Shown here in pieces: positions 11,327-57,608 of a DNA stretch of 64,000 nt. The stretch is from an uncultured Actinomycetes bacterium (GTDB lineage Bacteria; Actinomycetota; Actinomycetes; S36-B12), in assembly GCA_963842725.1 (NCBI GenBank), contig CAWJHN010000004.1, positions 1,566-65,565 of the forward strand. The letters run 5' to 3'. The translations under genes and the position numbers were made by a program. The notes under the pieces are model-generated. The model did not search any database, had not been told where the DNA came from, and saw only the letters and a program-made list of their open reading frames with translations. How positions within the stretch are numbered: the first letter of the stretch is position 1; each line of letters begins with the position of its first letter.

Positions 11327-11510
11327 CGGTGGCTCAGGCGAAACCCAATCGTGTTGGAGGCGAGGCGGCAACGCCTTGGCCGGGAAGAGAGGTCACGAGG
11401 CTGGTTCTTGCATGGCCCTTTCCTGACGGGCCCGGGTGGATCTGCGAGGGTCCGGGTGGGCCGGAATCCGGTGCAATCGTTTGATTTCCGGTGATGTGCG
11501 GTGTGATCGG

Positions 11511-11557
11511 GACGGCCTTGATTCCGTAGGTTCGGGGTTCGAGCCCCCGGCGACCCG
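11511..11557 (+). other. tRNA-like 3' remnant (T-arm plus acceptor 3' strand), not an intact tRNA
   Basis: CGGGG-TTCGAGC-CCCCG (11533-11549) is a canonical T stem-loop and is followed by GCGACCC-G. No complementary 5' acceptor strand (GGGTCGC) and no valid anticodon loop were found in the preceding 80 nt. Confidence 0.35.
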
Positions 11558-11769
11558 CTTCCTGAAATACATTTCGGGACAGGCACTTTCGGCCGTCACC
11601 AGATGTCAACGGCTCTACAGGTCCGGAGACCGTCAGGCGAACCTGGGCCTCTGGACCATCGCCCGGGACCGCCTGACCCTCGACCCCGAAGGACGGATTG
11701 CGGCTCGTGGATAGCGCCTCATCGACGTGGCGAGTGGGTAGTCTTCAGTGACGGTCGACCCGACCCCTG

Positions 11770-11793
11770 GGACGGTCGGCCAGGGGACCGTCC
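11770..11793. promoter_or_regulatory. inverted repeat GGACGGTC-N8-GACCGTCC upstream of the isomerase gene
   Basis: Read from the sequence. It is preceded by a direct copy of GACGGTCG at 11750-11757 and lies about 30-50 bp upstream of the ATG at 11823. Confidence 0.25.
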
Positions 11794-11822
11794 GACCGCG
11801 ACTAGGGAATCCGGTGGTAGCC

Positions 11823-12680
11823 ATGAAGCGCATGCTGGGCGTCAACACGTGGGTATGGGTCTCGCCGCTCACCGACGAGAACATCGGTGAACTGCTGACT
11901 CGTATATCCGATTGGGGCTTCGAGTCGGTCGAGCTGCCCCTGGAGTACGCGGGCGCGATCAGCGATGACGTCGCGTCGCATGCCCTTGCGGAGACGGGGC
12001 TGACGCCGTACATCGTCGGCGCCATGGCACCGGGTCGCGATCTCGTCCGCGCCGAGCCCGATGCCGTCCGTGCGACCCAGGACTACCTGCGCGAGCTGGT
12101 GCGCTTCGCGAGCGTGGTGGGCGCCCCCACCGTGGCGGGGCCGTTGTACAGCGCTGTCGGGCGGGTGTGGCGGATGGACGAGGCCGAGCGTGTCGCGGCC
12201 TACGCCGAGCTACGCGAGAACTTGGCCCCGGTCGTTGAATACGCGGCTTCCGTGGGCGTGGTCGTCGGCATCGAGCCTCTCAACCGCTACGAGACGAGCC
12301 TGATCAACACGGTGGAGCAGGCCCTTGATGCACTCGGTCCGCTGCTCGGCCCGAACCTCGGCATTGCTCTCGACACCTACCACATGAACATCGAGCAGCG
12401 CTCGAGCGTCGAGGCCGTGCGAGCGGCTGGCAGTCACGTCGTGCACGTACAGGTCTGCGGCAACGATCGGGGTGCCCCCGGGAACGACCAGACACCATGG
12501 GTGCCCCTGCTGGCAGCCCTCGACGACGTGGGATACCGGGGGCCGTTGAACATCGAGAGCTTCACCGCCGACAACGAGAGCATCGCCACCGCTGCCTCCA
12601 TCTGGCGCCCGCTCAGCCCCACGCAGGACCAGCTCGCCACCGACGGGCTTGCGTTCCTTCGCTCCATGCAGGCCGAGTAG
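11823..12680 (+). CDS. sugar phosphate isomerase/epimerase (xylose-isomerase-like TIM barrel)
   Basis: Starts MKRMLGVNTWVWVSPL. Contains VVGIEPLNRYETSLINT and LNIESFT. This internal ATG within ORF 11748..12680 was chosen as the start. Confidence 0.75.
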   Translation: MKRMLGVNTWVWVSPLTDENIGELLTRISDWGFESVELPLEYAGAISDDVASHALAETGLTPYIVGAMAPGRDLVRAEPDAVRATQDYLRELVRFASVVGAPTVAGPLYSAVGRVWRMDEAERVAAYAELRENLAPVVEYAASVGVVVGIEPLNRYETSLINTVEQALDALGPLLGPNLGIALDTYHMNIEQRSSVEAVRAAGSHVVHVQVCGNDRGAPGNDQTPWVPLLAALDDVGYRGPLNIESFTADNESIATAASIWRPLSPTQDQLATDGLAFLRSMQAE

Positions 12681-12682
12681 TC

Positions 12683-13810
12683 GTGGCGGGCGGTCGCACA
12701 TTCACCGTCGCAGTCGTGGGCCTCGGGTTCGGTGCGGAGTTCGTCCCCCTGTGGCAGAAGCATCCGAGCACGAGTTGCGTCGCGATCTGCCAGCGCGACG
12801 CCCGCAAGCTCGCCGCCGTCGGTGACGTCTTCGGGGTCGAGCAGCGGTATACGGACTTCGCGCAGGTCCTACAGGATCCCGCGGTCGACGTGGTGCACAT
12901 CAACAGCCCCATCCCGGACCACGCCTGGATGAGTATCGCCGCGCTGAAGGCGGGCAAGCACGTCGCGTGCACAGTGCCGATGGCGACGAGCATTGCGGAC
13001 TGCCGCAAGATCGTCCAACTCGTCGAGCGCACCGGCCTGACGTACATGATGATGGAGACGGTGGTCTATTCCCGCGAGTACCTCTACATGAAGCAGATGC
13101 TCGACTCGGGGAAGCTGGGCAGGCTGCAGTTCGTCCAGGCCAGCCATCAGCAGGACATGGATGGCTGGCCCGACTACTGGCCGGGCCTGCCGCCAATGTG
13201 GTACGCCACCCACTGCGTCGGGCCCGTTGCCGGCCTGATCGGCCAGCCGGCCGAGTACGTGAGCTGCTTCGGATCGGGCACGATCCGCGAGGAGCTCGTC
13301 GGGCGCTACGGCTCGCCCTTTGCGGTGGAGACGGCTCACATCAGGTTCCGCGACAGCGACGTGGCCGGCCGGGTCGTCCGCAGCCTCTTCGACACGGCTC
13401 GCCAGTACCGCGAGAGTATTGACGTGTATGGGTCGGCGAAGGCTGTCGAGTGGCCCCTGGTGGAGGGCGAGCCGCTCATCGTCCATTCAGCGAAGCGTCC
13501 CGAGCCGAAGATCCCCAAGCGCGTCGTGTGCCCGGACTTCGCCGGGCGCCTGCCGCGCAGCATCGCGCCCTACACGACGAGCGGCGTCTACGACGGTGGC
13601 AAGAAGACGCACCTCAGCTTCACGCAGGGAGGCGGCCACGGAGGCAGCCACCCGCACCTGGTCCACGAGTTCGCGTCGGCGCTGGTGGCCGGACGTGACC
13701 CGTTCCCGAATGCTGTTCAGTCCGCCAACTGGACCTGCGTCGGGCTGTCCGCGCACGAGTCCGCGCTCAAGGGCGGCGCGATCGTCAGGCTCCCCGCCTT
13801 CACCCTGTAG
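12683..13810 (+). CDS. Gfo/Idh/MocA-family oxidoreductase
   Basis: GTG at 12683 gives VAGGRTFTVAVVGLGFGAEFVP (Rossmann N-terminus). It sits 2 nt after the isomerase stop. The long upstream extension of ORF 12497 overlaps the isomerase and is discounted. Confidence 0.75.
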   Translation: MAGGRTFTVAVVGLGFGAEFVPLWQKHPSTSCVAICQRDARKLAAVGDVFGVEQRYTDFAQVLQDPAVDVVHINSPIPDHAWMSIAALKAGKHVACTVPMATSIADCRKIVQLVERTGLTYMMMETVVYSREYLYMKQMLDSGKLGRLQFVQASHQQDMDGWPDYWPGLPPMWYATHCVGPVAGLIGQPAEYVSCFGSGTIREELVGRYGSPFAVETAHIRFRDSDVAGRVVRSLFDTARQYRESIDVYGSAKAVEWPLVEGEPLIVHSAKRPEPKIPKRVVCPDFAGRLPRSIAPYTTSGVYDGGKKTHLSFTQGGGHGGSHPHLVHEFASALVAGRDPFPNAVQSANWTCVGLSAHESALKGGAIVRLPAFTL

Positions 13811-13960
13811 TCGTAGCCGGTGGTGGCGTCAGCCTGGACGCGGCCGACGCAGCTGAACCGCTTGCCGTACCGCTGCCCGAGGAAGTCGGTGATCTCGAGG
13901 CCGTCCCTGAGGGTCGGCATCCCTTGCGGCACGCTTGAGCGCCGATTGGATTCGGATCAC

Positions 13961-14563
13961 CTAGTCGTGGACGCCGAACTGACCGCGGTGCACGACGGAT
14001 TCGACCACTCGGCGGCGCGCCTCGACCGCGGCCGCCTGCGGCGGCGTATCTGGCGCGCGGTGCCCGACCGTGATGCCTCCGATGGGCGCATAGTCGCTGG
14101 GGATGTCGAACTCGGTTCGGAACGGTGCCAGTTGGTCCGGTTGGATGCCGAAGAAGCATGCGTCCAGGCCTTCGTCCACGGCGGTCAGCAGTATCAGCAG
14201 TGAGGCCATGCCCGTGTCGATGAACCAGTAGGGCGCGGGCCAGTGGGCCTCGGCCCGGTCCTCCCAGCCCTTGTCCGGCTCGGCATACCGCTCAAGGTAG
14301 GTGGCCTTGTGCGCTAGCGGCACGACGACAAGGGGCGCGAGCTGCATCGTCGGCGTCTGCTCGACGCGCGTCGGGACGAACCGCCAGAATCGTGATCGGT
14401 CCTCGGCCGTGGTGAGCACTAGGAAGGCCCATCCCTGCGAGAAGCCGGCCGAGGGGGCGCGTAGCGCGGAGGACAGAATCCGTTCGATGGCGTCGAGTGA
14501 GATCGACTCGTCGGTGTAGTGACGGATCATTCGACGGCGGCGTATGACCTCGGTGAACTCCAT
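13961..14563 (-). CDS. nitroreductase-family protein
   Basis: Starts MEFTEVIRRRRMIRHYTDESISLDAIERILSSALRAPSAGFSQGW, a typical nitroreductase N-terminus. Confidence 0.75.
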   Translation of the reverse strand: MEFTEVIRRRRMIRHYTDESISLDAIERILSSALRAPSAGFSQGWAFLVLTTAEDRSRFWRFVPTRVEQTPTMQLAPLVVVPLAHKATYLERYAEPDKGWEDRAEAHWPAPYWFIDTGMASLLILLTAVDEGLDACFFGIQPDQLAPFRTEFDIPSDYAPIGGITVGHRAPDTPPQAAAVEARRRVVESVVHRGQFGVHD

Positions 14564-14749
14564 GCGAGCGAGTCTGGCATGACGGCCTGTTTCCATTGAC
14601 AGCCTCGGGTATCTCAGTTGCGGTGGGCAGGACCCTTTCCCCACCCAGCCCGATGTGGTTCAGGACCGTGCAGGAACCGACCTATCCGAGGCCGTGACCA
14701 GTCGGTGATCGACCGGGGCACCGTCTTGGCGCCGAGACTCCATGAGTCC

Positions 14750-17700
14750 TTAGCCGGCGTCGCCTAGGACCACCCGAACACGGTGCGTGCGCCCGTCGTC
14801 GGCCAGCGGGATCGCCGCGCCGTTGTTCGCCAGCAGCTCGTCGTCAAGTTCGACCGACACCACACCGTGGGTGAGGCCACGTGGGTTCTCCACGACGATC
14901 TGGTACCGGGACGAGTGGTATCGGAAGCTGATCTCGAAGCCCGGCCATGCACGCGGGATGCAAGGGTCGATCACGAGCGTCGTACCCCGAAGTCGGAAGC
15001 CGAGGATCGACTCGATGCCAGCCTGATACATCCAGCCCGCTGATCCTGTGTACCAGGTCCACCCGCCGCGTCCAACGTGCGGCGGTTCCGTGTAGACGTC
15101 GGCCGCCATGACGTAAGGCTCCACCTTGTAACGCAGCACGCCGGCGCGTGTGCTGGAGTGGTTGATCGGGTTGAGCAGCGAGAACAGCTCACCCGCCCGG
15201 TCGCCGTCGCCGATTGCGGCGAAGGCGAGTACCGACCAGATGGCACCATGGGTGTACTGCCCACCGTTCTCGCGGATGCCGGGCACGTAGCCCTTGATGT
15301 AGCCGGGATCGACATCGGAGTGGTCGAACGGTGGGGTGAACAGCAGAACCAAACCGTCGCCGCGTCGGATGAGGTACTCGTCTACCGCCGCCATCGCCTG
15401 CGCGGCTCGAGCCGGGTCAGCGACGCCGGATAGGACGCTCCACGACTGGGCGATCGAGTCGATCCTGCATTCGGCATTCGCTGCTGAGCCGAGCGGGGTG
15501 CCGTCGTCGAAGAAGGCGCGCCGGTACCAGTCGCCGTCCCAGCCCTCTTGCTCGACGGCCTGCTGCAGTATCAAGGCGTGGGCTTGCCAGCGTTCCGCAT
15601 GCGCGCCATCGCCGCGGGCCTGCGCGAGCGGGATGAACGAGCCGAGCGCGGAGGAAAGGAACCACGCCAGCCATACGCTTTCGCCCCGACCTTCATGACC
15701 CACCCGGTTCATGCCGTCGTTCCAGTCGCCCGACCCGATGAGCGGTAGCCCGTGCTCGCCAACGGCGAGGCTTCGGTCGAGGGCAGCGGCGCAATGGTCG
15801 AACAGCGAGGCCGATCGGGTGGAGCGTTCCGGCTGGAAGTACTCCTCCATCTGGCCGGGCAGCAGGTGGGCCCCCTCGAGGAATGGCACCTGCTCGTCGA
15901 GCACGGACGTGTCGCCTGTGACCGCCAGGTAGCGATCGACCGTGTACGGCAGCCAGAGGAGGTCGTCGGAGATCCTGGTCCGTACCCCGCGGCCCGACGG
16001 CGGATGCCACCAGTGCTGCACGTCTCCCTCGACAAACTGACGCGACGCGGCCCGCAGTAGGTGCTCCCGCGCGAGTTCGCGCTTCGAGGGAAGCAGGGCG
16101 ATCACGTCTTGGAGCTGATCGCGGAACCCGTAAGCGCCACCCGCTTGGTAGAACGCCGACCTCGCCCACATCCGGCACGCGAGCGTCTGGTAGATCAGCC
16201 AGCGGTTGAGCATGATGTCCATCGAGCGATCCGGGGTGCGCACCTGGATCGTTCCCTGAGCATCGTCCCAGTAGGTCGTCACGTCGCGGAGCATCGATTC
16301 GTGGTCGGCCTGCCGGGTGCGGCGGATCAGGTCCACGGCCGCGCCGGCATCGCCGGCTTCGCCCAGGAGCACGACCACCTGCGTCCGCGCCCCCCCCGCA
16401 AGCTCGAAACTGACCTGCAGCGTGCCGCACGGATCCAGGCCCGCGCCGACCGCGCCCTGGAGCCGGTGGCCGCGATCCAGCCCCGCCGGCCGATCAGGTG
16501 CCCCATTGCGGCCCAGGAACTCGGTCCGATCGGCGGTCGATGAAGTCTGTCGACCGCCGAGATCGAGGAAGGCGACGCGCTCGGCAAACTCGGTGTTCCA
16601 CGGGTTGCGTACCAGGAACGCCCCTGTCTCGGGCTCGAGGGCGGTGATGATGCGGGGTGCGTTCGCCCCGCGTGAGGTGCCCAGGACCCACTCGACGAAT
16701 GCGGTCACCGAGAGACGCCGAGTAGATCCGGATCGGTTCTCGATAGTCAGCACCGACACCTTCACGGCCCGATCGAGGGGCACGAACTGCAGCAGTTCGA
16801 GTTGAATGCCGGCGTGAAGGTGCTCGAACCGGCTGTACCCGGCTCCGTGACGGGCGATGTACGTCGAGTCCTCACAACGGATCGGCTGGGTGGTCGGCCC
16901 CCATACCTCCCCGGTGTCGTCGTCGCGCACGTAGATGGCTTCGCTCACGGGGTCGCTAACGGGGTTGTTGGACCAGCCGGTCAACTGGTTCTCGCGGCTG
17001 TTCCCCGACCACGTGTACCCCGAGCCGGATTCGGATACCTGGAACCCGAACGACTCGTTTGCGATCACGTTGAGCCACGGCGCCGGGGTGGACTGCCCCG
17101 GGCCGAGGATCGTGACGTACTCACGGCCGTCGTCCGTGAAGCCACCGAGTCCGTTGAAGAACTCCAACTCCGGTCGAAGGACGGCCGGCTCGACCGACGA
17201 CCGCTTCGACCTGATCGCCGACGGCGGTCGTGCCTTGCGATCGGGCTGATCGAGCCGTGTCACTTGATCGGCGAGACTGCCTCGGCGGCTGAGAAGGACT
17301 GCACGAGCAGCGCTCTGGAGGAGCACGCGATCCTCACCCGGGAGTCGGTCGCCGCGAATGATGTACACCCCTCCGCGACCTGCGCCGACATCGTGCTGGA
17401 GGACCGACTGGCTCGTGCGCACCAGGGCTTCGAGCGAGTCGTGCAAGTTCTGGGCGTAGGTCGCACCGTGCTCGTTGAGAATCACGAGATCGACGTCGAG
17501 GAGTTTCAGCCGCCAGTACTCGTGTGCGCGCAGAAGTTGGCGGACGAGGCCGAGATCCTCTGCCTCGTCGATGCGGACCAGCACGATGGGGAGGTCACCG
17601 GAGATGCCATAGGCCCACAGCGACGGCGCCCCCCGATTGTTTCGGGCCAGCAGGCTCTCCGACGGGCGGAGCGAGGGGTCCGAGTAGAGGACCCGGTTGG

Positions 17701-20700
17701 CCAGCCGCTGGAAGAGGTGCGCCTCGTCGGACTGGATTCCCAGGTGGTGTAGTTGCACCTGCGCCTGGGTCCACGCCAGCACGGCAGCGCGTTCGAAGGT
17801 GGCCGACTCGCGGTACTTGTCGGCCAGGTCCAGCACCTCTTCGCGCGACCCGGCGACCACCGTGGAGAAGATCGCGTGCGCCGTTGCCCCTGCGGCGAGC
17901 GTCACGCGGCAGCGCAGGCTGAAGATCGGATCCAGCACGGAGCCGACCGTGTTCGAAAGCGGGTGCCCGTCGATCACCGAGACGGGCGAGCGGACCGATC
18001 GGCCGCGCCCGAGGAAACGGGCGCGATCCGTCTCATACTGAACGACCCCCGCGGGTTGGTCCTCGAGCGCTACCACGTGGGCAGCCCAGATCGATGGTTC
18101 GGCTGCCGATTGTGGTCGCCGCGTGGCAACGAGGGCACCGATGTCGGGAACGAAATCGGTCTGCACGAACAGGTTCTGAAATGCGGGGTGCGCCATATCC
18201 GCTGCTTGCGGCGCGAGGGCGATCTCGGCGTACGACGTGAGCTCGATCTTGCGTTCGCGTGTGCCGAGGTTTGTCAGCGACACGCGGCGGATCTCCGCGT
18301 CGTGCTCGGCCGATACGACGACGGTGAGCCCCGTTGAGATCGACCCGTCGCGGCGGGAGAACTCGGCGCGGTCCTCGGAGTAGATGACCTCATAACTGTC
18401 CGCTTCGGCACCGGTCGGTTGATGCCCCGCCGACCACACCGCGCCCGTCTCCATGTCGCGCAGGAAGAGGTAGCTGCCCCAGTTGTCTTGGGTGACATCC
18501 TCACGCCATCGTGTTACCGCGACGTCGCCCCACCGGCTGTAGCCGGATCCCGCGGTGGTGACCATGACGGCATACCGGCCGTTCGACAGCAGGTGCGTCC
18601 GCGGCAGCGCGTCGTGGGGCGATGTGAAGCGACGCAGGACCGGCGGCACCAGATCACGGACGTCGGCCGCGCTCTTCACCTCCTCGGCGCGTGGCCGGGC
18701 CACGAGCACGTCGCGCGGCATTCGCTCCTGCAACAGCAGCTCGGCGGCCTCGACGATGGGGTCGGCGTGGAAGCGCTCCACCATTGCCCTGTCGTTGAGG
18801 ACGTTGCCGATGGCCACCAGCGCCATTCCCTGGTGGTGGGCCATGTAGCTGTTGACGACCGCGACCGACTCCCCTTCCGGCAGCCGGCGCTCCGTGTAGT
18901 CGAGCGCCTCGCGGAAGCCGTATCGCCCCTCGGCGCCGGCAGCCGTGAGGCGAACGAGGTTCTTGACCGCGGCCTTCGGTTCGATCATGGCGGCAAGGGC
19001 CGTCGCGTACGGGGCGATGACGACATCCTCGCTCAGCCCCCGCTTCAGGCCGAGGCCGGGAACGCCGAAACCCGAGTACTGGTAGGTGTTCGCAAGGTCG
19101 CGCGCGTTGAAACCCGACTCGGAGATTCCCCACGGCACACCGATATCGGTGGCGTAGTTGATCTGACGCGCAACGACCAGCCGGTTCGTCTGGTCTAGGA
19201 GGCCGTGGGCCGGCGAGCGCATCACGAGCGCTGGCATGAGGTACTCGAACATCGATCCGGACCAGGAGATGAGGGCCGATCCACGACCGACTGGCGTCAG
19301 CGCCCGGCCGAGACGGAACCAATGTTCCGGCTCGACGTCACCCTTGGCTATCGCCAGGAAGCTGGTGAGTCGGGCCTCGGAGGCGAGTAAGTCGTAGTAG
19401 CTCGGGTCCAATGAACCGTCGCGAACCCTGAAGCCGATCGAGAACAGCATGCGCGTCGGGTCGAACAGGAAGGAGAAGTCCATCTCGTCGAAGAGCTGCT
19501 GGGCTCGATCAGCAATCGCGCCGAGGCGCCGGACGAGCCCCGCGGCTGCACGCGCGCTGTCGTCCATGTTGCCATCGGTCGGGTCGGACAACTGCGCGAT
19601 CGTCGGAAAGGCGCCGAGTTGTGCGGACGCACTGAACAACGCCTGGTCGCGGGCGTGGCTGGCGGCAGTGCGCCTTGCGGCCGCGGCCCATGTCACGAGT
19701 TCGCTCTCTGCTCCCTCGCCGCGCTCGGCGTTGAGCACCACGGCGACGTCCGAAAGCGTGTCGGTGTACACGACGAGCTTTGCCAGCTGCGCGGCCCAGT
19801 CCCTCAGGGTGAGGGGAACGGTGACCCCGACTCCATCGGGCAGCAACAGCGCTTCGTCGAGTTGCCGCCTCGTGAGGGTGGAACTTCGCCCACGGCCGAT
19901 CACAGAGGCAGCAGCGCGAGTCAATGCGAGCGCGTCTGCGACGCCAGCGATCGCGGCCGCCGCAGGCAGCGGCTGGTCGATCATCTGCCGGCAGGCGTTC
20001 GACAACGCCAGCAGGTGCCCAGCGAGGTTGCCGCTGTCGACAGAGGACACGTAGTCCGGCTCCAGCCGGCGAAGATCACGCGTGTCATACCAGTTGTACA
20101 GGTGCCCGCGGTAGCGCTCCAGTTCGCCCATCGTGGCCAGCGTCTGCTCCAGGCGTTCCACCATCTCGAACGTCCCGATCCAACCGAAGTCGCGGGCTGT
20201 CACCGTCGAGAGCAGGTACATCCCGATGTTGGTCGGCGAGGTGCGATGTGCGACGACCGGGGTCGGATCGTCCTGGAAGTTGTCGGGCGGCAGCCCATGA
20301 TCCTCTTGCTCCACGAAGGTCTCGAAGAACAGCCAGGTGCGACGAGCGGTGATGCGCAGCGCATCGACTTCGGCCGCCGACAGCACTTCCGACGCCGATT
20401 CGGGAGGGGGCAAGCTGATCCAGAGCGCGACCAGCGGTGAGGACAACCACAGCACGACGAACGGCGCGGCGATCCAAACGGCATCGGGCTTCACGGCCAG
20501 GACCAGAGCGAGCGTTCCCAACCCCATCACTACAGCACCGGCCATCTGACGGGCGAACCCCGCAGCGCTCAGGTGGTGGCTGGCTTGGGCGCGCGCGGCG
20601 GTGGTCCATTCGAGTAGGTTCCGCCGAGTGACCAGGAGCCGGATCAGCGTCCGAACGATCGCGTCGATCATCAGCCACGCTTGGTAGGCGACGAACGTGA

Positions 20701-23413
20701 TGCCGAGCACGATGTGGGCGGCAGCTGCGGCGAAATCGGCACCGACGGCGACTGCGTGGCTGCGCTTGGAGATGCCCTGCCGGCGTGGCCGCAGGCCGGC
20801 CACGGCCGGCAGCACAGCGGGGATCGCCACTGTGGCCACGATGAGCCACGTCCACTGGCTCGCCGAGACGTGCGGAAGCGTCCAGGCCGCGATCAGCGTC
20901 GCCACGGTTAGGGGTGCGGACAGCGTGCGCCGGAGGTTGTCGATCATCTTCCAGCGAGCAATGAGCGGCACCGAACTTTCCGAGCGCGCGCCCGTGGCAT
21001 CGCGTGCCACGCCCAGGATCCACGGCAGCAATTGCCAGTCGCCGCGCGCCCACCGGTGCTGGCGGCTCGCCGAGACGAGGTAGTTGGAGGGGTACTCGTC
21101 GAAGAGCTCGATGTCCGTGACAAGTCCGGCTCGGGCGAATACGCCTTCGAAGAGGTCGTGGCTCAGCAGTGCATTGTCGGGGACCCGGTCCGCCATCGCT
21201 GCGCGGAACGCGTCGACGTCGTAGATCCCCTTGCCGGTGTAGCTCCCCTCCTGGAACAGATCCTGGTACACATCGGACACCGCCGACGCGTACGGGTCGA
21301 TCCCCGCCGACCCGGAGAAGATGCGCTGGTAGATCGAGCCGCCCTGCTCAGCCGGCAGCGTCGGGGTGATCCGCGGTTGCAGCACCCCATAGCCCTCGAC
21401 GACGCGACCCGCCGCAGCATCGATGCGCGGCCGGTTAAGCGGGTGGGCGATCGTGCCCACGAGGCGCCTGACGGCACCCAACGGAAGCCGCGTATCGGCG
21501 TCGAGCGTGACGACGTACCGCACATCCGGCGGTGGCGTCGACGCCGGCCGGCCGTTCGTGATGATGCTGGTCGTGGTCGAGCCGCGCAGCAGGTCGTTCA
21601 GCTCGTGGAGCTTGCCCCGCTTGCGTTCCCAACCCATCCAGCAGCCGTCCGCTTCGTTCCAGGTCCGTGTGCGGTGGAGGAGCAGGAATCGGGCGCCCCC
21701 ACCGGGGGCTTCGCCGTATCGGGCGTTGAGCTCGTCGATCGCCGCCGTACCGGCGGCGAGAAGCTCGTCGTCGCCGGGGACGCTCTCGGCCGCGGCGTCG
21801 AGCCAGTCCGATAGCAGTGCGAAGCGAACATCGCCGTCACCATTCCCGAGGAAGTGCACCTCCAGTCCCCTGACCTGCGACTGGACGTCAGCCTCACTGG
21901 TGAGCAGCATCGGTACCACGACCAGTGTCCTCAAGTCCGCGGGTATGCCGTTGTCGAGAATCAGCCGCGGCATCGCCTGCGGGCCTAGCACCCTCGTTAC
22001 CAGCATGTTGACCAGGGCCACCGACAGATCGGAGACCGGCACCAGGGCGAGGGCCGCGAGGACGACAAGGCCGCCCACTGGACTCCCTTCCGGAGCGAAC
22101 AGCAGAGGCAAGGCGAGGACGGCGGCAGTGACCACGGCGATCATCGACAGGTAGCCAATGCCGGCCGCGTTGACGAAGACGCGCCGGAGCCGCTCGGTGA
22201 GGTGCAGCCGAACCCCGAGCGCCGACTCGAGCGCAGGCCGGCCGTCCGAGACCAGGAAGTATCCGGGGTCGCGGTGGCGGGCTGACTGGAGCTGCGCGCC
22301 CTCGACGGCCGGAGGCACCGCCTCCGCCATCTGTACCGCCGCGGTAGCGACCTCGATCTCGGTGCGACCCGAACCGCGCGCGATCTCCTCGATCGCGTCG
22401 CGATAGTGGTTCCGTGTCGTGAAGTCCATGTCGGCGAACGCGCAGCGGTCGCGCAGCATTGCATCGACCGAACTGACGCTCTCCACGAACTGAGCCCAGT
22501 CGAACCAGGAGAGCAGGCGCATGCTCATGATCACGTTCCGGACCGTCACATTCATCATCGCCTGCTGCTGATGCTCGCGGCGCACCAGCTCCTCGGCGGT
22601 GGTGTCCTGCGAAGCGAGAAGCTCCTCAAGCCAAAGCAAGGCGGGGGTAGTCGCGGGGTCGAGATCTCGGAGCCGCTGGAACAACTGCACGCGCGCCGCA
22701 GTGGGAAGCGTCGCACGCTTGAGCCGTCTCATGGATGCAGCGGCTCGGTCCTGTCCGTCGGCACCGACGCCGAGGAGGTCGTCAGCGAGCTCGTCCGCCA
22801 GCTGTCGGGCTGCGCGCTTGCGCACGATCTGCTCCGTCATGCGGCGAAGGTTCTCCACCAGAAGGATGCGCAGGCTGATCGCGATCGCCCAGAGCTCGCC
22901 GATCGTCAGGGGCTGGACCTCCTGATACGCGTTCAGCATTCGCCGCAGGCTCTCCTGGTCCAAGCGACTGTCGGTGTGCGCGATGTACCCCCACGCGATG
23001 CCAAGCACCCGCGGGTATCCGGCAAGGGGGCCATCCGCGAGTTTGGGCAACTCGCGGTAGTAGGTGGGGGGCAGGTCGTCGCGGATCTCGCGGAGCTGCT
23101 CGTCGACGATGGGGAAGTTGTCGACCAGCCACTCTGCGGCGGGGGTGATCGTTCGCTCGTCCTTGATCGCACGAGCCAGCACTCGGTATGAGTCCACTAG
23201 CACGCGACCGTTGTCCGCGATCCGAGAATGGACGTCGCGCCCACGGTGGGGCGCGTCGGTCACCGACTGCGCTGCGGCCAGTGACTGGCCGTGTTGCTCG
23301 AGACGTTCCACGCTGAAGAGTTCTGCGAGGATCGGCTCGTCGAACTCCGCCTCCGAAGGACCTCGCCGCCGACCACCCGCTAGTTCATCTCGGTAGGGCT
23401 GGTTCGCCTTCAT
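14750..23413 (-). CDS. cgs: cyclic beta-1,2-glucan synthase (Cgs/NdvB/ChvB-type: N-terminal glycosyltransferase, central alpha-barrel domain, C-terminal GH94 phosphorylase-like domain)
   Basis: A single uninterrupted 2887-codon ORF with hydrophobic segments. Glycosyltransferase core: VTLDADTRLPLG and RQHRWARGDWQLLPWI. Central region: LPPDNFQDDP...SPTNIGMYLLS. C-terminal region: GSGDWNDGMN and WYTGSAGWMYQ. The size and domain order match characterised Cgs enzymes. Confidence 0.85.
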   Translation of the reverse strand: MKANQPYRDELAGGRRRGPSEAEFDEPILAELFSVERLEQHGQSLAAAQSVTDAPHRGRDVHSRIADNGRVLVDSYRVLARAIKDERTITPAAEWLVDNFPIVDEQLREIRDDLPPTYYRELPKLADGPLAGYPRVLGIAWGYIAHTDSRLDQESLRRMLNAYQEVQPLTIGELWAIAISLRILLVENLRRMTEQIVRKRAARQLADELADDLLGVGADGQDRAAASMRRLKRATLPTAARVQLFQRLRDLDPATTPALLWLEELLASQDTTAEELVRREHQQQAMMNVTVRNVIMSMRLLSWFDWAQFVESVSSVDAMLRDRCAFADMDFTTRNHYRDAIEEIARGSGRTEIEVATAAVQMAEAVPPAVEGAQLQSARHRDPGYFLVSDGRPALESALGVRLHLTERLRRVFVNAAGIGYLSMIAVVTAAVLALPLLFAPEGSPVGGLVVLAALALVPVSDLSVALVNMLVTRVLGPQAMPRLILDNGIPADLRTLVVVPMLLTSEADVQSQVRGLEVHFLGNGDGDVRFALLSDWLDAAAESVPGDDELLAAGTAAIDELNARYGEAPGGGARFLLLHRTRTWNEADGCWMGWERKRGKLHELNDLLRGSTTTSIITNGRPASTPPPDVRYVVTLDADTRLPLGAVRRLVGTIAHPLNRPRIDAAAGRVVEGYGVLQPRITPTLPAEQGGSIYQRIFSGSAGIDPYASAVSDVYQDLFQEGSYTGKGIYDVDAFRAAMADRVPDNALLSHDLFEGVFARAGLVTDIELFDEYPSNYLVSASRQHRWARGDWQLLPWILGVARDATGARSESSVPLIARWKMIDNLRRTLSAPLTVATLIAAWTLPHVSASQWTWLIVATVAIPAVLPAVAGLRPRRQGISKRSHAVAVGADFAAAAAHIVLGITFVAYQAWLMIDAIVRTLIRLLVTRRNLLEWTTAARAQASHHLSAAGFARQMAGAVVMGLGTLALVLAVKPDAVWIAAPFVVLWLSSPLVALWISLPPPESASEVLSAAEVDALRITARRTWLFFETFVEQEDHGLPPDNFQDDPTPVVAHRTSPTNIGMYLLSTVTARDFGWIGTFEMVERLEQTLATMGELERYRGHLYNWYDTRDLRRLEPDYVSSVDSGNLAGHLLALSNACRQMIDQPLPAAAAIAGVADALALTRAAASVIGRGRSSTLTRRQLDEALLLPDGVGVTVPLTLRDWAAQLAKLVVYTDTLSDVAVVLNAERGEGAESELVTWAAAARRTAASHARDQALFSASAQLGAFPTIAQLSDPTDGNMDDSARAAAGLVRRLGAIADRAQQLFDEMDFSFLFDPTRMLFSIGFRVRDGSLDPSYYDLLASEARLTSFLAIAKGDVEPEHWFRLGRALTPVGRGSALISWSGSMFEYLMPALVMRSPAHGLLDQTNRLVVARQINYATDIGVPWGISESGFNARDLANTYQYSGFGVPGLGLKRGLSEDVVIAPYATALAAMIEPKAAVKNLVRLTAAGAEGRYGFREALDYTERRLPEGESVAVVNSYMAHHQGMALVAIGNVLNDRAMVERFHADPIVEAAELLLQERMPRDVLVARPRAEEVKSAADVRDLVPPVLRRFTSPHDALPRTHLLSNGRYAVMVTTAGSGYSRWGDVAVTRWREDVTQDNWGSYLFLRDMETGAVWSAGHQPTGAEADSYEVIYSEDRAEFSRRDGSISTGLTVVVSAEHDAEIRRVSLTNLGTRERKIELTSYAEIALAPQAADMAHPAFQNLFVQTDFVPDIGALVATRRPQSAAEPSIWAAHVVALEDQPAGVVQYETDRARFLGRGRSVRSPVSVIDGHPLSNTVGSVLDPIFSLRCRVTLAAGATAHAIFSTVVAGSREEVLDLADKYRESATFERAAVLAWTQAQVQLHHLGIQSDEAHLFQRLANRVLYSDPSLRPSESLLARNNRGAPSLWAYGISGDLPIVLVRIDEAEDLGLVRQLLRAHEYWRLKLLDVDLVILNEHGATYAQNLHDSLEALVRTSQSVLQHDVGAGRGGVYIIRGDRLPGEDRVLLQSAARAVLLSRRGSLADQVTRLDQPDRKARPPSAIRSKRSSVEPAVLRPELEFFNGLGGFTDDGREYVTILGPGQSTPAPWLNVIANESFGFQVSESGSGYTWSGNSRENQLTGWSNNPVSDPVSEAIYVRDDDTGEVWGPTTQPIRCEDSTYIARHGAGYSRFEHLHAGIQLELLQFVPLDRAVKVSVLTIENRSGSTRRLSVTAFVEWVLGTSRGANAPRIITALEPETGAFLVRNPWNTEFAERVAFLDLGGRQTSSTADRTEFLGRNGAPDRPAGLDRGHRLQGAVGAGLDPCGTLQVSFELAGGARTQVVVLLGEAGDAGAAVDLIRRTRQADHESMLRDVTTYWDDAQGTIQVRTPDRSMDIMLNRWLIYQTLACRMWARSAFYQAGGAYGFRDQLQDVIALLPSKRELAREHLLRAASRQFVEGDVQHWWHPPSGRGVRTRISDDLLWLPYTVDRYLAVTGDTSVLDEQVPFLEGAHLLPGQMEEYFQPERSTRSASLFDHCAAALDRSLAVGEHGLPLIGSGDWNDGMNRVGHEGRGESVWLAWFLSSALGSFIPLAQARGDGAHAERWQAHALILQQAVEQEGWDGDWYRRAFFDDGTPLGSAANAECRIDSIAQSWSVLSGVADPARAAQAMAAVDEYLIRRGDGLVLLFTPPFDHSDVDPGYIKGYVPGIRENGGQYTHGAIWSVLAFAAIGDGDRAGELFSLLNPINHSSTRAGVLRYKVEPYVMAADVYTEPPHVGRGGWTWYTGSAGWMYQAGIESILGFRLRGTTLVIDPCIPRAWPGFEISFRYHSSRYQIVVENPRGLTHGVVSVELDDELLANNGAAIPLADDGRTHRVRVVLGDAG

Positions 23414-23580
23414 TGGCCACTCTCAACGAGTTGTGCTTCTTAGGTTACCGCAAGCGGCTGGGTGCGTCAGGAGCTGTTGGGCTGCTCCGCGGATACACGC
23501 ACCCCGACCGCGTGCAAGGCGCTGACCAACGCCGCGCCTTCGCAGCCCGAGGCCGGCCAGCAAAGGGTTTCGGGATGCAA

Positions 23581-23605
23581 GCGAAGGCTGTAACTCTCCC
23601 TTCGC
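23581..23605 (-). terminator. weak hairpin downstream of the dehydrogenase gene
   Basis: GCGAAGG-N11-CCTTCGC (7-bp stem) lies about 135 nt past the stop at 23740. There is no clear U-tract. Confidence 0.2.
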
Positions 23606-23739
23606 AGCGCTGGCGTCGATGACGACCCGCTTCTGCGAACACGTGATGCGCAGGTCCGAGATCAGACCTCTCGACCACGAGCCTGCCTCGCTCTCGAATC
23701 CCACGCAGCAGCGGCCGACCAGCCTGCAGTACATCCTTA

Positions 23740-24813
23740 TCAGGGATGGACGAGGATCTTGACGGCGGTCTCGTTGTGGTTGATCAACTCGTCGAACCCG
23801 TCTTCCACGAGGCGGTCGAGGGGAATCATCGCCGTGATGAAAGGAGCAAGGATGACCTTGCCCTCCTGGACGAGCTTGATCGTGGCGGGGTGGTCGTTGC
23901 AGTAGGCGATGGTGCCGCGCAGGTCGATCTCCTTGAGCACGAGGGCCTGCATGTCAATAGTCGCTGGCTTGCTCCAGATCGACACGTTGACCACGACGCC
24001 GCCGGGCTTGACCGCGGCGAGGAGCTGGTCGAGGACGGCGTTGACGCTGGAGCACTCGAAGCAGACGTCGGCGCCGAGGCCTCCAGTGAGCTCGAGGATG
24101 CGGGCGGCGATGTCGTCCTTGCTCGGATCAAGGACGTGGTCGGCGACCCCGGTCGACAGCGCCTTGGCCTTCCGAGCCTCGCTGAGCTCGGACACGATCA
24201 CTGTGAGGCCCTCGGCCTTGAGCACGGCAGACAGCAGTAGGCCGATTGGGCCAGCGCCTCCAACGAAGGCGACGTCACCGGCTTTGGCGCCACTGCGCAC
24301 GTATGCATGGTGGCCGACTGACAGTGGTTCGATGAGTGCGGCCTCGTCGAGCGGGATACTGCCGACGGGGTGGACCCAGCGCCGGTCGACGACGATCTGC
24401 TCGCTTAGCCCGCCTCCGCCGCCGGCGAGCCCGATGAACCCCATCTTGGTGCACAGGTTGTAGCGGCCGTCCCTGCAGGGCACGCATTCGCCGCACACGA
24501 AGTACGGCTCCACCACGACATGCTCGCCGATCGTCAGGTCGGTGATGCCGTCGCCAAGGGCGGAGATCGTCCCCGAGAACTCATGGCCCATGGTCACCGG
24601 CTCCTCCTCGTGGGTGAGCGGGTGTGGGTGGCCCTTGGCGGGGATGAAGATCGGCCCCTCGAGGAACTCGTGAAGGTCAGTGCCGCAGATGCCGCACCAG
24701 GCGATGTCGATCGTGACTGCTCCTGGGCGCAGGACTGGGACAGGCACATCGGTGATCGTGATGTCCTTGGGTCCGTTGAAACGTGCTGCCTTCATGGGGG
24801 ACCTCTCCGTCAT
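23740..24813 (-). CDS. zinc-dependent alcohol dehydrogenase, 2,3-butanediol/threonine dehydrogenase-like
   Basis: 357 aa. Contains WCGICGTDLHEF, GHEFSG and the structural Zn cysteines CGECVPC, followed by a Rossmann domain. Confidence 0.8.
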   Translation of the reverse strand: MTERSPMKAARFNGPKDITITDVPVPVLRPGAVTIDIAWCGICGTDLHEFLEGPIFIPAKGHPHPLTHEEEPVTMGHEFSGTISALGDGITDLTIGEHVVVEPYFVCGECVPCRDGRYNLCTKMGFIGLAGGGGGLSEQIVVDRRWVHPVGSIPLDEAALIEPLSVGHHAYVRSGAKAGDVAFVGGAGPIGLLLSAVLKAEGLTVIVSELSEARKAKALSTGVADHVLDPSKDDIAARILELTGGLGADVCFECSSVNAVLDQLLAAVKPGGVVVNVSIWSKPATIDMQALVLKEIDLRGTIAYCNDHPATIKLVQEGKVILAPFITAMIPLDRLVEDGFDELINHNETAVKILVHP

Positions 24814-54989: not shown

Positions 54990-57608
54990 CTCGCCGCCGC
55001 GGCGCACGGCGGCGCGGCGGTTGTTGACGCCGAGCTTGGTGTAGATGCTCTTGGTGTGCGTGCGCAGGGTGTTGAGCGACACGAACAGGCGCCGGGCGAT
55101 CTCGGGGCCGTCGAGCTCGGTGGCGAGCAGGCCCAGGACCTCGAGCTCGCGGGCGCTCAACGGATCGAGGAGGCTCCTCGACGCGGTCGGCTCGTGCGGC
55201 ACCGCCGAGACGGGGACGTCCGCGCCCGGGACGCCGCCCGACCGTGCGAACGCGCGCTTCTGGCCCTCCCGTTCGGCCAGCCGCACGGCGCGATCGAATA
55301 GCGCCAGCGATGCGCTCACGTCGCCCCGTGCCTGGGCGGCGGCCGCCTGGAGGACAAGCACCTCGATAACCGTGGCAGCCCTGCCACCGGCCGTCGCGGC
55401 GTCCAGCAACCGCTGCAGGAGGCCTTCGGTCTCCATGAGGATGGCCGGGTCGGCGCGGCCCCTGCCTCGGGCGAGCATGGCCTCGGCAAGGGTCACATGC
55501 TCGAACTCGCGCAGGTACGACAGCTCCTGCGCCGCCCTCACGTCGTGGTCGCGGGCCCATCGCTCCGCCTCATCCAGGTCGTCGAGCCGGATCCGCAGCC
55601 GAGCGGCGATGGCGTGCAGCGGCCGCACGTTCGGTGAGAAGTCGCCGAGGTACACCTGCTGCGCCTGCATCACGAGCGCGAGGGCTCCGGCGATGTCGCC
55701 CTCGGCCTCGGCGAGCATCGCGGCCACCGCCCGGGAGCGGTAGGCGTACGGAGGGAGGCCGTGCTCATCGCCGAGCGCGCGCGCCGCGACGAGTTGGTCG
55801 CGAGCGGTATCGAGGTCTCCGCGTTCCAGGGCCAGCTGGGCTTGGGCGACGCGGATGTCTGCCACTCCTCGTGGCGTCCCGCCCGGCGAGCCCGCGGCCA
55901 CGCGCAGCGCCTCGTCGCAGGTGGCCTGCGCATCGCCAAGCCGTCCTTGGGCAATCTGGATCTCGGCCACGGTCAGGTAGCAGCCGATGGCGTCGGAGAT
56001 GTGCTGGGCGCGACGAAGCCCATTGATGCAGATCGCGTAGGAGCGGAGTGCCTCGTCGAGCTCCCCGCTCGCCCAATGCGCCAGTCCAGACAGGCCAGCG
56101 GCACCGGCGCTGACGACATCGTCATCCGGGGCGGCGGTTTCGATTGCTCGTCGGGCGTGGCGTTGCGTCGCGGGCAGGTCCCCGGACACCAGGCAAAGGC
56201 CCGTCCGGTACAGCTCGACTGCCCCCGGGACCCTGGCCAGCTCCGCGAGGTCAAGCGCGACGACCGCACTGTCGGATGACCCCTTCGCGTCGCCCGCCTC
56301 GAGGAGCGCGTGGATCGCAGGAAGCTGGCGTTCGATGTCGCGAAGACGCCGCTCGACGTCGCCGAACTCGTTGCTGGCCATCAGCGCGCCGACAAAGGCG
56401 ATGGCGAGGACCGGACGCTGCTGGACCACCTCGTCGGGCACGTCGTCGAGCCAGCGCCGGAGCGTGGCCTCCTGCCGGGTGCGCTGCAGGGCGGGAGTGG
56501 ACTCCTCGACGAGATCGGCAGCCCGGTCGACGGCACCCGCGGCCAGCGCGTGTCGGACGGCGGCGACGGGGTCTCCGGTCATCGCGCACCAGCGACTTGC
56601 TCGCAGGTGGAGCCCCGGAACGACGTCGGGCCGCTCACTGCGCAGGCGCGCCTGGAGCACGTCGGCGAAGAGGTGGTGGTAGCGGTACCAGTTGCGCTTG
56701 TCGTCCAGCGGGACAAGGAACAGGTTCGCGCGCTCCAGACTCTCGAGCATCGCCTGGCTGCCGGTCCGCTCGAGGACGCTGTCGCACAGATCCCCGCTGA
56801 GTACGTCGAGAATCGACGTCCGCTCAAGGAAGTCGCGAACCTCGTCGGACTGGCGGGACAGCACCTCGTCCGCCAGGTAGTCGACGACATGGCGATCGGT
56901 GCCAGCGAACCCTGCGATGAAGTCGCCGATGTCGTCCCGACCCTGCATCGACAGTGACACCAGCTGGAGGGCGGCTGCCCACCCCTCGGTCCGTGATTCC
57001 AGGGCCGACACGTCTGCGGGTGCGACGGGAAGGCCGCCGACGTCGGTGAGATAGGAGGCGGTCTCGTCGACCGTGAAACGCAGGTCGCGGGCGCGGATCT
57101 CGACCAGCTCGCCGCGTGCGCGCAACTTCGCAAGCGGGAGGTTGGGGTCCGCGCGGGTGCTGACAACGACGTGCAGGTTCATCGGCCGCCGTTCGAGCAG
57201 GAACGTCATCCCCTCGGCGACCTCAGGACTGTCGGCAAGGTGGTAGTCGTCGAGGATCAGGTCGACGACTTTCGCCTGGTCCCCGATCTCGTTGAGGACC
57301 GCAGTGAGCATCTCCCTCGTGGCAGGCTGCCCGGCGGCGAGCAGCGGCAGGGCGCCTGCCCCGATGTCCGGTGCGGCTGAGTGCAGCGCCGTCACGACAT
57401 AGAGCCAGAACGCGCCCGCGTGGCTGTCGGAGTCGTCGAGCGACACGAACGCCACCGTCCGCGACGTGGTCGAGGCGCGAGCCAGCCAGGAGGCGAGGAC
57501 AGTCGTCTTGCCGAACCCGGCTGGGGCAGAGACCAGGGTGAGCGTGGCGTGGGCGCCCGCGTCCATCAGTCCGAGCAGTCGAGACCGGGGTACCAGCACG
57601 TCTCGCAA
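54966..57608 (-). CDS. large ATP-binding LuxR-family regulator (LAL/MalT-like: P-loop NTPase, helical repeats, C-terminal LuxR HTH)
   Basis: 880 aa. Contains LVSAPAGFGKTTVL (Walker A), a long helical/TPR-like middle region, and C-terminal LSARELEVLGLLATELDGPEIARRLFVSLNTLRTHTKSIYTKLGV. Confidence 0.85.
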   Translation of the reverse strand: MRDVLVPRSRLLGLMDAGAHATLTLVSAPAGFGKTTVLASWLARASTTSRTVAFVSLDDSDSHAGAFWLYVVTALHSAAPDIGAGALPLLAAGQPATREMLTAVLNEIGDQAKVVDLILDDYHLADSPEVAEGMTFLLERRPMNLHVVVSTRADPNLPLAKLRARGELVEIRARDLRFTVDETASYLTDVGGLPVAPADVSALESRTEGWAAALQLVSLSMQGRDDIGDFIAGFAGTDRHVVDYLADEVLSRQSDEVRDFLERTSILDVLSGDLCDSVLERTGSQAMLESLERANLFLVPLDDKRNWYRYHHLFADVLQARLRSERPDVVPGLHLRASRWCAMTGDPVAAVRHALAAGAVDRAADLVEESTPALQRTRQEATLRRWLDDVPDEVVQQRPVLAIAFVGALMASNEFGDVERRLRDIERQLPAIHALLEAGDAKGSSDSAVVALDLAELARVPGAVELYRTGLCLVSGDLPATQRHARRAIETAAPDDDVVSAGAAGLSGLAHWASGELDEALRSYAICINGLRRAQHISDAIGCYLTVAEIQIAQGRLGDAQATCDEALRVAAGSPGGTPRGVADIRVAQAQLALERGDLDTARDQLVAARALGDEHGLPPYAYRSRAVAAMLAEAEGDIAGALALVMQAQQVYLGDFSPNVRPLHAIAARLRIRLDDLDEAERWARDHDVRAAQELSYLREFEHVTLAEAMLARGRGRADPAILMETEGLLQRLLDAATAGGRAATVIEVLVLQAAAAQARGDVSASLALFDRAVRLAEREGQKRAFARSGGVPGADVPVSAVPHEPTASRSLLDPLSARELEVLGLLATELDGPEIARRLFVSLNTLRTHTKSIYTKLGVNNRRAAVRRGGELGLLTGR

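Follow-up and report, generated by a model that had tools for sequence, protein, structure and literature searches.

To our knowledge, all functional knowledge of cyclic beta-1,2-glucans comes from diderm Alphaproteobacteria that have a dedicated pump to the periplasm. The gene considered here, cgs, encodes a predicted synthase of such a glucan and lies in a window of 64,000 nucleotides (the whole stretch of DNA analysed, positions 1566-65565 of a 2.08-Mb contig) from an uncultured actinobacterium, whose genome comprises 2.84 Mb in four contigs and is 83.8% complete. Its product has the same N-terminal scaffold domain (NTD), six transmembrane (TM) helices, glycosyltransferase domain (GT84), cyclase domain (GH189) and phosphorylase domain (GH94) as Agrobacterium tumefaciens Cgs/ChvB (PDB 8rf0, 8rf9; PMC10901819), Brucella abortus Cgs and Sinorhizobium NdvB. 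Like the A. tumefaciens enzyme, it has the catalytic aspartates, the RW motif, the primer tyrosine, the cyclase glutamates and the phosphorylase aspartates, and Cgs proteins of the Phyllobacteriaceae/Brucellaceae type are about 43-55% identical to it. Unlike in Agrobacterium, Brucella and Sinorhizobium, the host is actinobacterial and has no outer-membrane marker, no ChvA/NdvA/Cgt exporter and no succinyl transferase, and unlike the chv/ndv loci, the window cgs is solitary and recently transferred. When the elements of a chv/ndv-type system were compared with the window's genome, neither the exporter, nor OpgC/Cgm, nor a marker of an outer membrane that would bound a periplasm was found.

Thermoanaerobacter italicus is a member of the Firmicutes, a Gram-positive phylum. 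Its CGS is like the window protein in being full-length, in belonging to a Gram-positive phylum and in having the same cyclase residues, and differs from it in the phylum concerned. The isolated cyclization domain of this enzyme (GH189, PDB 8wy1) has been characterised (PMC10834661). Stand-alone GH94 phosphorylases (1,2-beta-oligoglucan, cellobiose and chitobiose phosphorylases) align to the C-terminal 800 or so residues of the window protein (1v7v, 8ho9, E about 1e-93); they are without the NTD, TM helices, GT84 and cyclase, and the window protein groups with full-length Cgs. The copies most closely related to it, on six contigs and in genomes of Ilumatobacteraceae and Limnocylindrales, are all solitary, with no conserved neighbour and no adjoining Cgt-like gene. 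They differ in their context, which is a tRNA-Thr island array in the closest copy (L135) and general-stress clusters in some others, as against a nitroreductase and an alcohol dehydrogenase in the window.

We consider it highly probable that this locus carries a Cgs-type synthase which arrived recently by transfer of a single gene and has been kept under selection, with a role in stress as its likely function. An earlier annotation made from the letters of the window (the sequence-only reading) had recognised the enzyme and noted the missing exporter; new beyond it is the recent horizontal acquisition of a single gene between classes. This acquisition, the demonstrated constraint and the genome-wide lack of an exporter and a modifier in a host without an outer membrane are what is specific here. 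As an enzyme the synthase is not new, and metagenomes commonly contain genes like it, so that the value of the locus lies in its context and not in the concept.

The synthase, its phylogeny and its constraint

The gene is an uninterrupted open reading frame (ORF) on the minus strand, which begins with ATG and encodes 2887 residues; about 65 stop codons would be expected in a random frame of 2887 codons at 67% GC, as estimated from base composition. Its GC content at third codon positions (GC3) is 0.83, typical of coding DNA here and similar to that of the neighbouring genes. It is the longest gene of the window by a factor of three, the next two encoding 875 and 853 residues. The sequence-only reading had already described an intact Cgs/NdvB/ChvB-type frame of 2887 residues, the longest of the window, and the coordinates, strand and rank given there proved exact.

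Residues 19-2854 align in a single stretch to residues 16-2816 of A. tumefaciens Cgs (8rf0) with 2455 bits, and its middle part matches the T. italicus cyclization domain known from a crystal structure (8wy1). Pfam recognises the GH94 supersandwich in two stretches, the catalytic domain of GH94 and, at residues 1339-1548, the Glycoamylase domain (GH144/GH189-type fold, the cyclase), with scores of 407.6 bits for PF17167 and 540.3 bits for PF06165. No NCBIfam model matched the protein, and no Pfam-A model matched the glycosyltransferase region, while the same region aligns to the A. tumefaciens GT84 domain. The domain layout below follows PMC10901819, the residue roles were taken from PMC10901819 and PMC10834661, and the alignments were checked position by position. 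Evidence for the gene includes the ratio of nonsynonymous to synonymous substitution rates (dN/dS). All features in this list are on the minus strand.

14750 to 23413, minus strand: cgs, gene of a synthase for cyclic beta-1,2-glucan (open frame, end-to-end alignment to 8rf0, GC3, dN/dS)
22178 to 23413, minus strand: NTD, about residues 1-412 (aligns to the A. tumefaciens NTD)
21995 to 22177, minus strand: TM helices 1-2, about residues 413-473 (hydrophobic residues 417-440 and 446-472, aligned to the A. tumefaciens TM region)
20924 to 21994, minus strand: GT84 glycosyltransferase domain, about residues 474-830 (residue alignment to A. tumefaciens Cgs)
20405 to 20923, minus strand: TM helices 3-6, about residues 831-1003 (hydrophobic residues 853-874, 893-918, 957-975 and 980-1001, and a weaker stretch at about 830-850)
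18674 to 20404, minus strand: cyclase/transglycosylase domain (GH189), about residues 1004-1580 (alignment to 8rf0 and 8wy1; Pfam Glycoamylase)
14753 to 18673, minus strand: GH94 phosphorylase (length-control) region, about residues 1581-2887 (Pfam; alignment to A. tumefaciens Cgs)
GT84 residues D536, R597, D638/D640, D753, R787 and R790: equivalent to A. tumefaciens D527, R586, D624/D626, D739, R773 and R776
Primer tyrosine Y708 (motif GIDPY, in the IF1-homology loop): equivalent to A. tumefaciens Y694
Cyclase (GH189) residues S1123 and D1126: equivalent to A. tumefaciens S1101 and D1104
Cyclase residues E1346 (acid/base), E1390, E1432 (nucleophile) and H1526/H1527: equivalent to T. italicus E1356, E1400, E1442 and H1536/H1537
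GH94 residues D2432 (in GFRDQ) and D2566 (catalytic acid, in GDWNDG): equivalent to A. tumefaciens D2393 and D2528

In the GT84 domain the aspartates coordinating uridine diphosphate (UDP), the DxD motif, the catalytic base D753 and the RW motif with its flanking arginines are kept; overall, all experimentally defined catalytic residues of GT84, GH189 and GH94 as well as the primer tyrosine are retained, and none is lost. The membrane anchor was judged by a hydropathy scan alone, which gives two helices before GT84 (residues 417-472) and four to five after it (residues 830-1001), matching the six-helix anchor of the A. tumefaciens enzyme. An alignment of 28 full-length Cgs proteins has no insertion or deletion of at least 5 residues specific to the window's clade. 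An insertion of this kind forming an export channel had been considered and is ruled out on that ground, and nothing in the alignment points to an additional channel or to the loss of a module. By all these alignments, the window protein is a regular and complete member of the Cgs family.

Several points raised in the sequence-only reading can be settled here. Its identification of a complete Cgs/NdvB/ChvB-type synthase is borne out by the collinear alignment and the kept residues, loss of catalytic residues having been looked for in every module and not seen. The domain search it proposed succeeded with Pfam for GH94 and the cyclase, but for GT84 it failed with Pfam-A and succeeded through the alignment to A. 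tumefaciens Cgs. The proposed check of membrane topology, with two plus four to five segments, agreed with the expected six-helix anchor, and in the proposed phylogeny the window protein falls among full-length Cgs proteins, those of Brucellaceae and Phyllobacteriaceae included, and not among phosphorylase fusions.

Full-length Cgs proteins are distributed over Pseudomonadota, Acidobacteriota, Gemmatimonadota, Planctomycetota, Verrucomicrobiota, Myxococcota, Chloroflexota, Actinomycetota and further phyla. Two trees, of 56 and 28 sequences, place the window Cgs as sister to the Ilumatobacteraceae copy (73% identity), with the Limnocylindrales copy (70%) as the next branch and full support for both nodes; this group nests among copies from Acidobacteriota and Rokubacteria. 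Other actinobacterial Cgs proteins are placed elsewhere: that of Brooklawnia with the Brucellaceae type, one family with Gemmatimonadales, and another with copies from Chloroflexaceae and the Planctomycetota-Verrucomicrobiota-Chlamydiota (PVC) group. A single clade of six actinobacterial Cgs proteins costs 924 log-likelihood units and is rejected by the approximately unbiased (AU) test, the six-sequence group having been named after the tree was seen. [quoted passage not shown]

Codon alignments of the window cgs with three close homologues gave dN/dS values of 0.11-0.16 at unsaturated dS of 0.32-0.65, and each of the five modules lies within 0.08-0.26 (NTD 0.12-0.22, GT84 0.15-0.19). At the level of codon substitution, these values are direct evidence that purifying selection has kept the whole protein, the GH94 part included, functional along these lineages. 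The sequence-only reading had suggested that the gene is maintained, since many shorter genes around it are broken; the suggestion now has the support of these values, but the contrast with broken neighbours says nothing about selection.

Acquisition of cgs as a single gene and its probable vehicle

Searches with the whole protein found no cgs in 24 same-genus and 16 same-order genomes, where only stand-alone GH94 genes at 33% identity were met. The gene was likewise absent at the DNA level from 30 same-genus genomes and, with the N-terminal 1550 residues as query, from 172 other species in the 16 genera of the family. When a large protein collection was searched with residues 1-420, six close homologues were obtained, all full-length, with 87-92% protein identity and 84-91.5% nucleotide identity. 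Two of the six contigs are labelled 'Actinomycetota bacterium' at NCBI, and the other four are unlabelled and were placed in Actinomycetota by similarity only. A look-up of the exact window protein gave no record. The close relatives of cgs are spread over metagenome-assembled genomes (MAGs) that are labelled Actinomycetota or were assigned there by inference, and the copies of the next clade outwards are from Chloroflexota.

The DNA shared with these contigs is restricted to cgs, some 45 nt upstream of it and no more than 95 nt downstream. Between the window and L135 (NCBI GCA_030645495.1, JAUSLV010000020.1), which holds the closest copy with 92% amino acid identity, blastn homology covers 14664-23455 at 91.5% identity, and only 20 nt separate the end of the 3' trailer from the start codon of the nitroreductase gene.

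23414 to 23455, minus strand: conserved 5' leader moved with cgs (GCTTGCGGTAACC...TGAGAGTGG, then ATG); nucleotide homology to cgs loci in unrelated genomes begins here and does not reach further upstream
14664 to 14749, minus strand: 3' trailer common to L135, the end of the transferred segment (blastn and end alignment)
13961 to 14644, minus strand: nitroreductase gene, a resident host gene downstream of cgs (Pfam PF00881; 82-94% nucleotide identity in same-genus genomes without cgs)

Flanking genes of three homologue contigs (L132-L134) have best matches in the window genome of 30-49% protein identity, and RpoB of one homologue genome is 73% and 53% identical over two segments, the same distance as to Ilumatobacteraceae. 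Since cgs is about 90% identical while RpoB is about 70% identical, the gene has moved recently, and because the family is otherwise without cgs, the direction was into the window's lineage. The left flank is collinear with the same-genus genome G026 at 86.7% nucleotide identity up to 11347, and synteny with the closest relative extends as far as the resident nitroreductase but not into the region of cgs that follows; the right flank carries genus-typical genes, such as an acyl-CoA dehydrogenase gene with about 75% nucleotide identity in all 30 relatives. An exact empty site could not be demonstrated, the right flank being variable in every relative examined and not collinear in G026, G009 and G017. 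Judged by these comparisons of sequence, cgs is shown to have been acquired recently by horizontal transfer into this actinobacterial lineage as a single-gene unit.

Composition was considered as evidence of transfer and rejected, since the deviation of cgs (67.2% GC, the genome as a whole having 70.0%; tetranucleotide distance in the 90th percentile) is mild and common to the first 30 kb of the contig. In this stretch (window 1-30000, C4:1566-31565), GC is 3-5 points under the genome mean of 70.0% and the tetranucleotide distance lies in the 82nd-98th percentile; its first 11 kb are nonetheless syntenic with a same-genus genome. As a separate observation, genes for a sugar-phosphate isomerase-like protein and a GFO/IDH/MocA oxidoreductase at 11348-13972 make up an insertion of 2.6 kb in comparison with G026, in which the nitroreductase follows 480 bp after a LacI gene. 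This insertion is an indel event separate from the acquisition of cgs.

A vehicle can be proposed from L135. There cgs is located between the third and fourth of four direct repeats of 84-185 nt, which are the 3' halves of tRNA-Thr(CGU) at 1417, 4237, 7211 and 18630, and the locus also holds a tyrosine integrase, a Xis-like HTH_17 gene, toxin-antitoxin pairs and a second integrase-like stretch. From the order of these sequences, the pattern is read as that of tRNA-targeting integrative islands arranged in tandem, and by analogy the vehicle of the window cgs was probably an island of this type. Within L135:1400-18815, the first module consists of a toxin-antitoxin pair, the Xis-like gene and the integrase, the second of a gene for a 726-residue repeat protein, and the third of cgs, RibD_C and hemerythrin genes. 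A possible trace of such an element in the window is the following.

11523 to 11559, plus strand: orphan tRNA-Lys(UUU) 3' fragment, an att-like scar (97% identity with the 3'-terminal 37 nt of the tRNA-Lys gene C2:3190-3262)

This fragment lies about 3 kb from cgs at the edge of the variable region, where synteny with G026 (ending at 11347) first breaks. The window contains no second tRNA-Lys fragment, only short flanking repeats at chance level, and no integrase or mobile-element gene. The fragment forms the end of a 147-nt element (11413-11559), which is present in a single copy in this genome and in several copies at 81-88% identity in same-genus genomes. At least four copies are found on one G017 contig, and three mapped copies in G017 are 4-5 kb apart, which points to a hot spot with arrays of integrated elements.

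Host envelope, export and the proposed role of the glucan

The genome has four WhiB genes, and among 14 control genomes such genes were found only in Corynebacterium. No match to Omp85/BamA was obtained in the genome, and because no Emb arabinosyltransferase was found in it, an envelope of the mycolate type is unlikely. On these markers, the host is an actinobacterium without a sign of an outer membrane or a mycolate envelope, in agreement with the high-GC Gram-positive context assumed in the sequence-only reading. With the proteins of Ilumatobacteraceae and Brooklawnia its RpoB shares 71-74% identity, with that of a Chloroflexia genome 61-66%.

No exporter or modifying gene adjoins cgs. In the whole genome, as far as it is complete, the chvA/NdvA/Cgt equivalog model (TIGR01192) gave a best score of 291.9 bits against a cut-off of 585.4 when all 84 candidate ATP-binding cassette (ABC) proteins were scored, whereas the Cgt orthologue of Pseudochrobactrum scores 974 bits. 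A tblastn search with the latter protein gave at best 37% identity over 418 residues in the window genome, the level of any type-IV ABC exporter, and five or six generic ABC exporters are present. The genome has no match to the OpgC/Cgm succinyl transferase (PF10129), no further GH144/GH189 domain and no second GH94. GalU is present with 327.8 bits, just above the cut-off, so that UDP-glucose should be available. Stand-alone GH94 phosphorylases of about 850-1050 residues occur in five same-genus genomes without cgs (G006, G007, G017, G022 and G027; L092-L096); they are 33-35% identical to the C-terminal module of Cgs, and the window genome is without any.

The lack of a Cgt orthologue is shared widely. 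Among 32 Cgs-bearing genomes of many phyla, an exporter at least 43% identical to Cgt was found in three, all Alphaproteobacteria, and the others, diderms included, have Cgt matches of at most 38%; since the scoring took in at most 42 candidates per genome, some orthologues could have escaped it. The chvA model was applied to 29 candidates of each of these genomes, which makes its negatives unreliable, and the Cgt protein query was used instead. From these matches, Cgs genomes other than those of a few Alphaproteobacteria appear commonly to be without the exporter. The puzzle posed in the sequence-only reading, a cyclic glucan synthase without its pump in a cell without a classical periplasm, therefore stands as to the exporter, which is missing genome-wide as well as locally, and as to the outer-membrane marker, but it has become less singular, as Cgs is found in many phyla and a Cgt orthologue is recognisable in only 3 of 32 genomes.

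Purified A. tumefaciens Cgs in proteoliposomes makes cyclic glucan unaided (PMC10901819), and a solitary gene can therefore be a useful cargo. All catalytic domains of that enzyme are cytoplasmic and its membrane domain forms no channel (PMC10901819), so that the ring would be released inside the cell. By analogy with the A. tumefaciens enzyme, the window protein is predicted to be anchored by about six helices in the cytoplasmic membrane and to have its catalytic domains all on the cytoplasmic side. GT84 would glucosylate its own Tyr708 and then lengthen a beta-1,2 chain from UDP-glucose, GH94 would shorten the chain by phosphorolysis and in this way set its length, and GH189 (nucleophile E1432, acid/base E1346) would transfer the chain onto its own end to give a ring of about 17-25 glucoses. 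The unmodified glucan may then be exported by a generic ABC exporter or retained in the cell.

No recurring partner gene was found in the flanks of 12 related loci by tblastn or, by Pfam, in the Ilumatobacteraceae, Limnocylindrales and three other actinobacterial genomes, and the nitroreductase and alcohol dehydrogenase beside the window cgs are common to no other cgs locus compared. An ABC-2/DrrA-type ATPase near cgs in L051 and L127 was examined as a candidate partner and rejected, as the two have only the similarity general to nucleotide-binding domains, both to each other and to the window genome. In L051, an Ilumatobacteraceae MAG, an ABC-2 transporter (an ATPase with a 200-residue N-terminal extension and a permease) and a GNAT acetyltransferase are encoded directly upstream of cgs (L051:6754-9924); this set, not conserved in the other loci, could serve as an alternative for export and modification.

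Catalase, ferritin-like, Transgly_assoc and hemerythrin genes are neighbours of cgs in three close relatives, joined in L133, one of the three, by RsbU/V/W-like genes and a sigma factor gene, a neighbourhood that suggests a general-stress or osmotic role. The stretches concerned are L133:2800-27600, L136:11600-15500 and L137:9700-10600, and their genes include those for KatE-type catalase, Ferritin_2, hemerythrin and Transgly_assoc proteins, PP2C (SpoIIE) phosphatases, partner-switching proteins with STAS and HATPase_c_2, and a sigma factor. The most likely role of the glucan would thus be osmotic or general stress protection rather than host interaction. A wider proposal, which we regard as possible but rather doubtful, is that solitary cgs genes are self-sufficient island cargo among soil Actinomycetota and Chloroflexota without an outer membrane, and that their glucan, unmodified and independent of a Cgt exporter, would remain in the cytoplasm or reach the wall zone through an unrelated transporter, serving under SigB-like control as a protectant against general stress, desiccation or osmotic change. 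If this is true, the role and compartment of the glucan differ from those of the proteobacterial periplasmic osmoprotectant and host-interaction factor. This locus and those closely related to it show an intact and selected enzyme that spreads alone among bacteria without an outer membrane or pump, and that must therefore be useful without the rest of the classical system. The locus makes the destination and role of the glucan in a monoderm cell testable with a defined set of genes, and it may also provide a compact, single-gene source for glucan production.

Several observations weigh against our reading of a functional, recently transferred synthase. The dN/dS values cover the whole path between lineages and not the period after arrival alone; the genome being 83.8% complete, an exporter or modifier could sit in the missing part; no integrase or paired att repeat flanks the window cgs, the vehicle being read from L135; the composition of cgs is, as given above, only mildly atypical; and the contigs with stress genes are partly syntenic and maybe interrelated, while the window is without such a neighbourhood. 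That dN/dS cannot isolate the branch after acquisition leaves some room for a recent passenger gene, unexpressed or useless in this host and intact only for lack of time to decay, and such a gene would fit the finding of a single cgs among 173 species of the family, the missing partner exporter and modifying gene, and a region in which no sigma-70-like promoter was found. We nevertheless judge it unlikely, since the 8.7-kb frame has no lesion and retains all catalytic residues, since the 8-13% protein divergence from the nearest relatives goes with a dN/dS of about 0.15, so that much of it was accrued under constraint, and since full-length copies are also retained in six other lineages.

The least probable of the explanations considered is an artefact of assembly or binning, in which the cgs segment of another organism of the metagenome was misjoined into this contig. 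The gene is only 16-25 kb from the contig end, its GC is 2.8 points under the genome mean and no relative in the family has it, but two precise misjoins exactly at gene ends would be required in a contig of 2.08 Mb whose left flank is collinear with G026 (86.7%) up to 11347, whose nitroreductase gene, starting 20 nt beyond the shared segment, has 82-94% identity to its same-genus counterparts, and whose right flank is genus-typical in its acyl-CoA dehydrogenase (about 75% nucleotide identity in all 30 relatives). It is also quite improbable, though slightly less so, that the enzyme makes a linear beta-1,2-glucan or rings of other sizes, or acts mainly in breakdown through GH189 and GH94. No product is known to have been determined for an actinobacterial Cgs, the lack of an exporter would fit an intracellular role, and the GH94 catalytic acid is dispensable in the A. 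tumefaciens enzyme (PMC10901819). Synthesis of a cyclic glucan is nevertheless favoured by the conserved and constrained GT84 set with its primer tyrosine (dN/dS 0.15-0.19) and by the cyclase nucleophile and acid/base, which are kept in a protein without clade-specific indels; furthermore, the domains are cytoplasmic in the solved structure, where no environmental glucan is present, and the genome is without other beta-1,2-glucan enzymes. We therefore retain the reading of a transferred and selected Cgs-type synthase.

Other features of the window

The immediate neighbours of cgs are those named in the sequence-only reading, a nitroreductase and an alcohol dehydrogenase with no adjacent exporter or modifier, and Pfam agrees on both.

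23740 to 24813, minus strand: Zn-dependent alcohol dehydrogenase gene, upstream of cgs with a 326-nt spacer (Pfam ADH_N and ADH_zinc_N)

The alcohol dehydrogenase gene adjoins cgs in no related locus and does not stand beside the nitroreductase gene in the relatives examined. An ORF of 103 residues directly upstream of cgs (23423-23734) fails the GC3 test and is probably no gene. Scans of the region for sigma-70-like promoters and for terminators were both empty, and Rfam at gathering thresholds gave no match in the whole window. ARAGORN calls a long tRNA-Arg(ACG) of 87 nt at 55338-55424, the Rfam tRNA model staying below its gathering score throughout the window; a normal tRNA-Arg(ACG) of 71 nt is present on contig C2, and the long call may be false or reflect a tRNA gene hit by consensus errors. 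Finally, the 73 nt between the convergent oxidoreductase and nitroreductase genes (13837-13909) have matches of 81-86% at many unlinked sites in same-genus genomes. On the minus strand this stretch reads MPTLRDGLEITDFLGQRYGKRFS..., and it may represent either a fragment of a gene or the beginning of a small conserved one.

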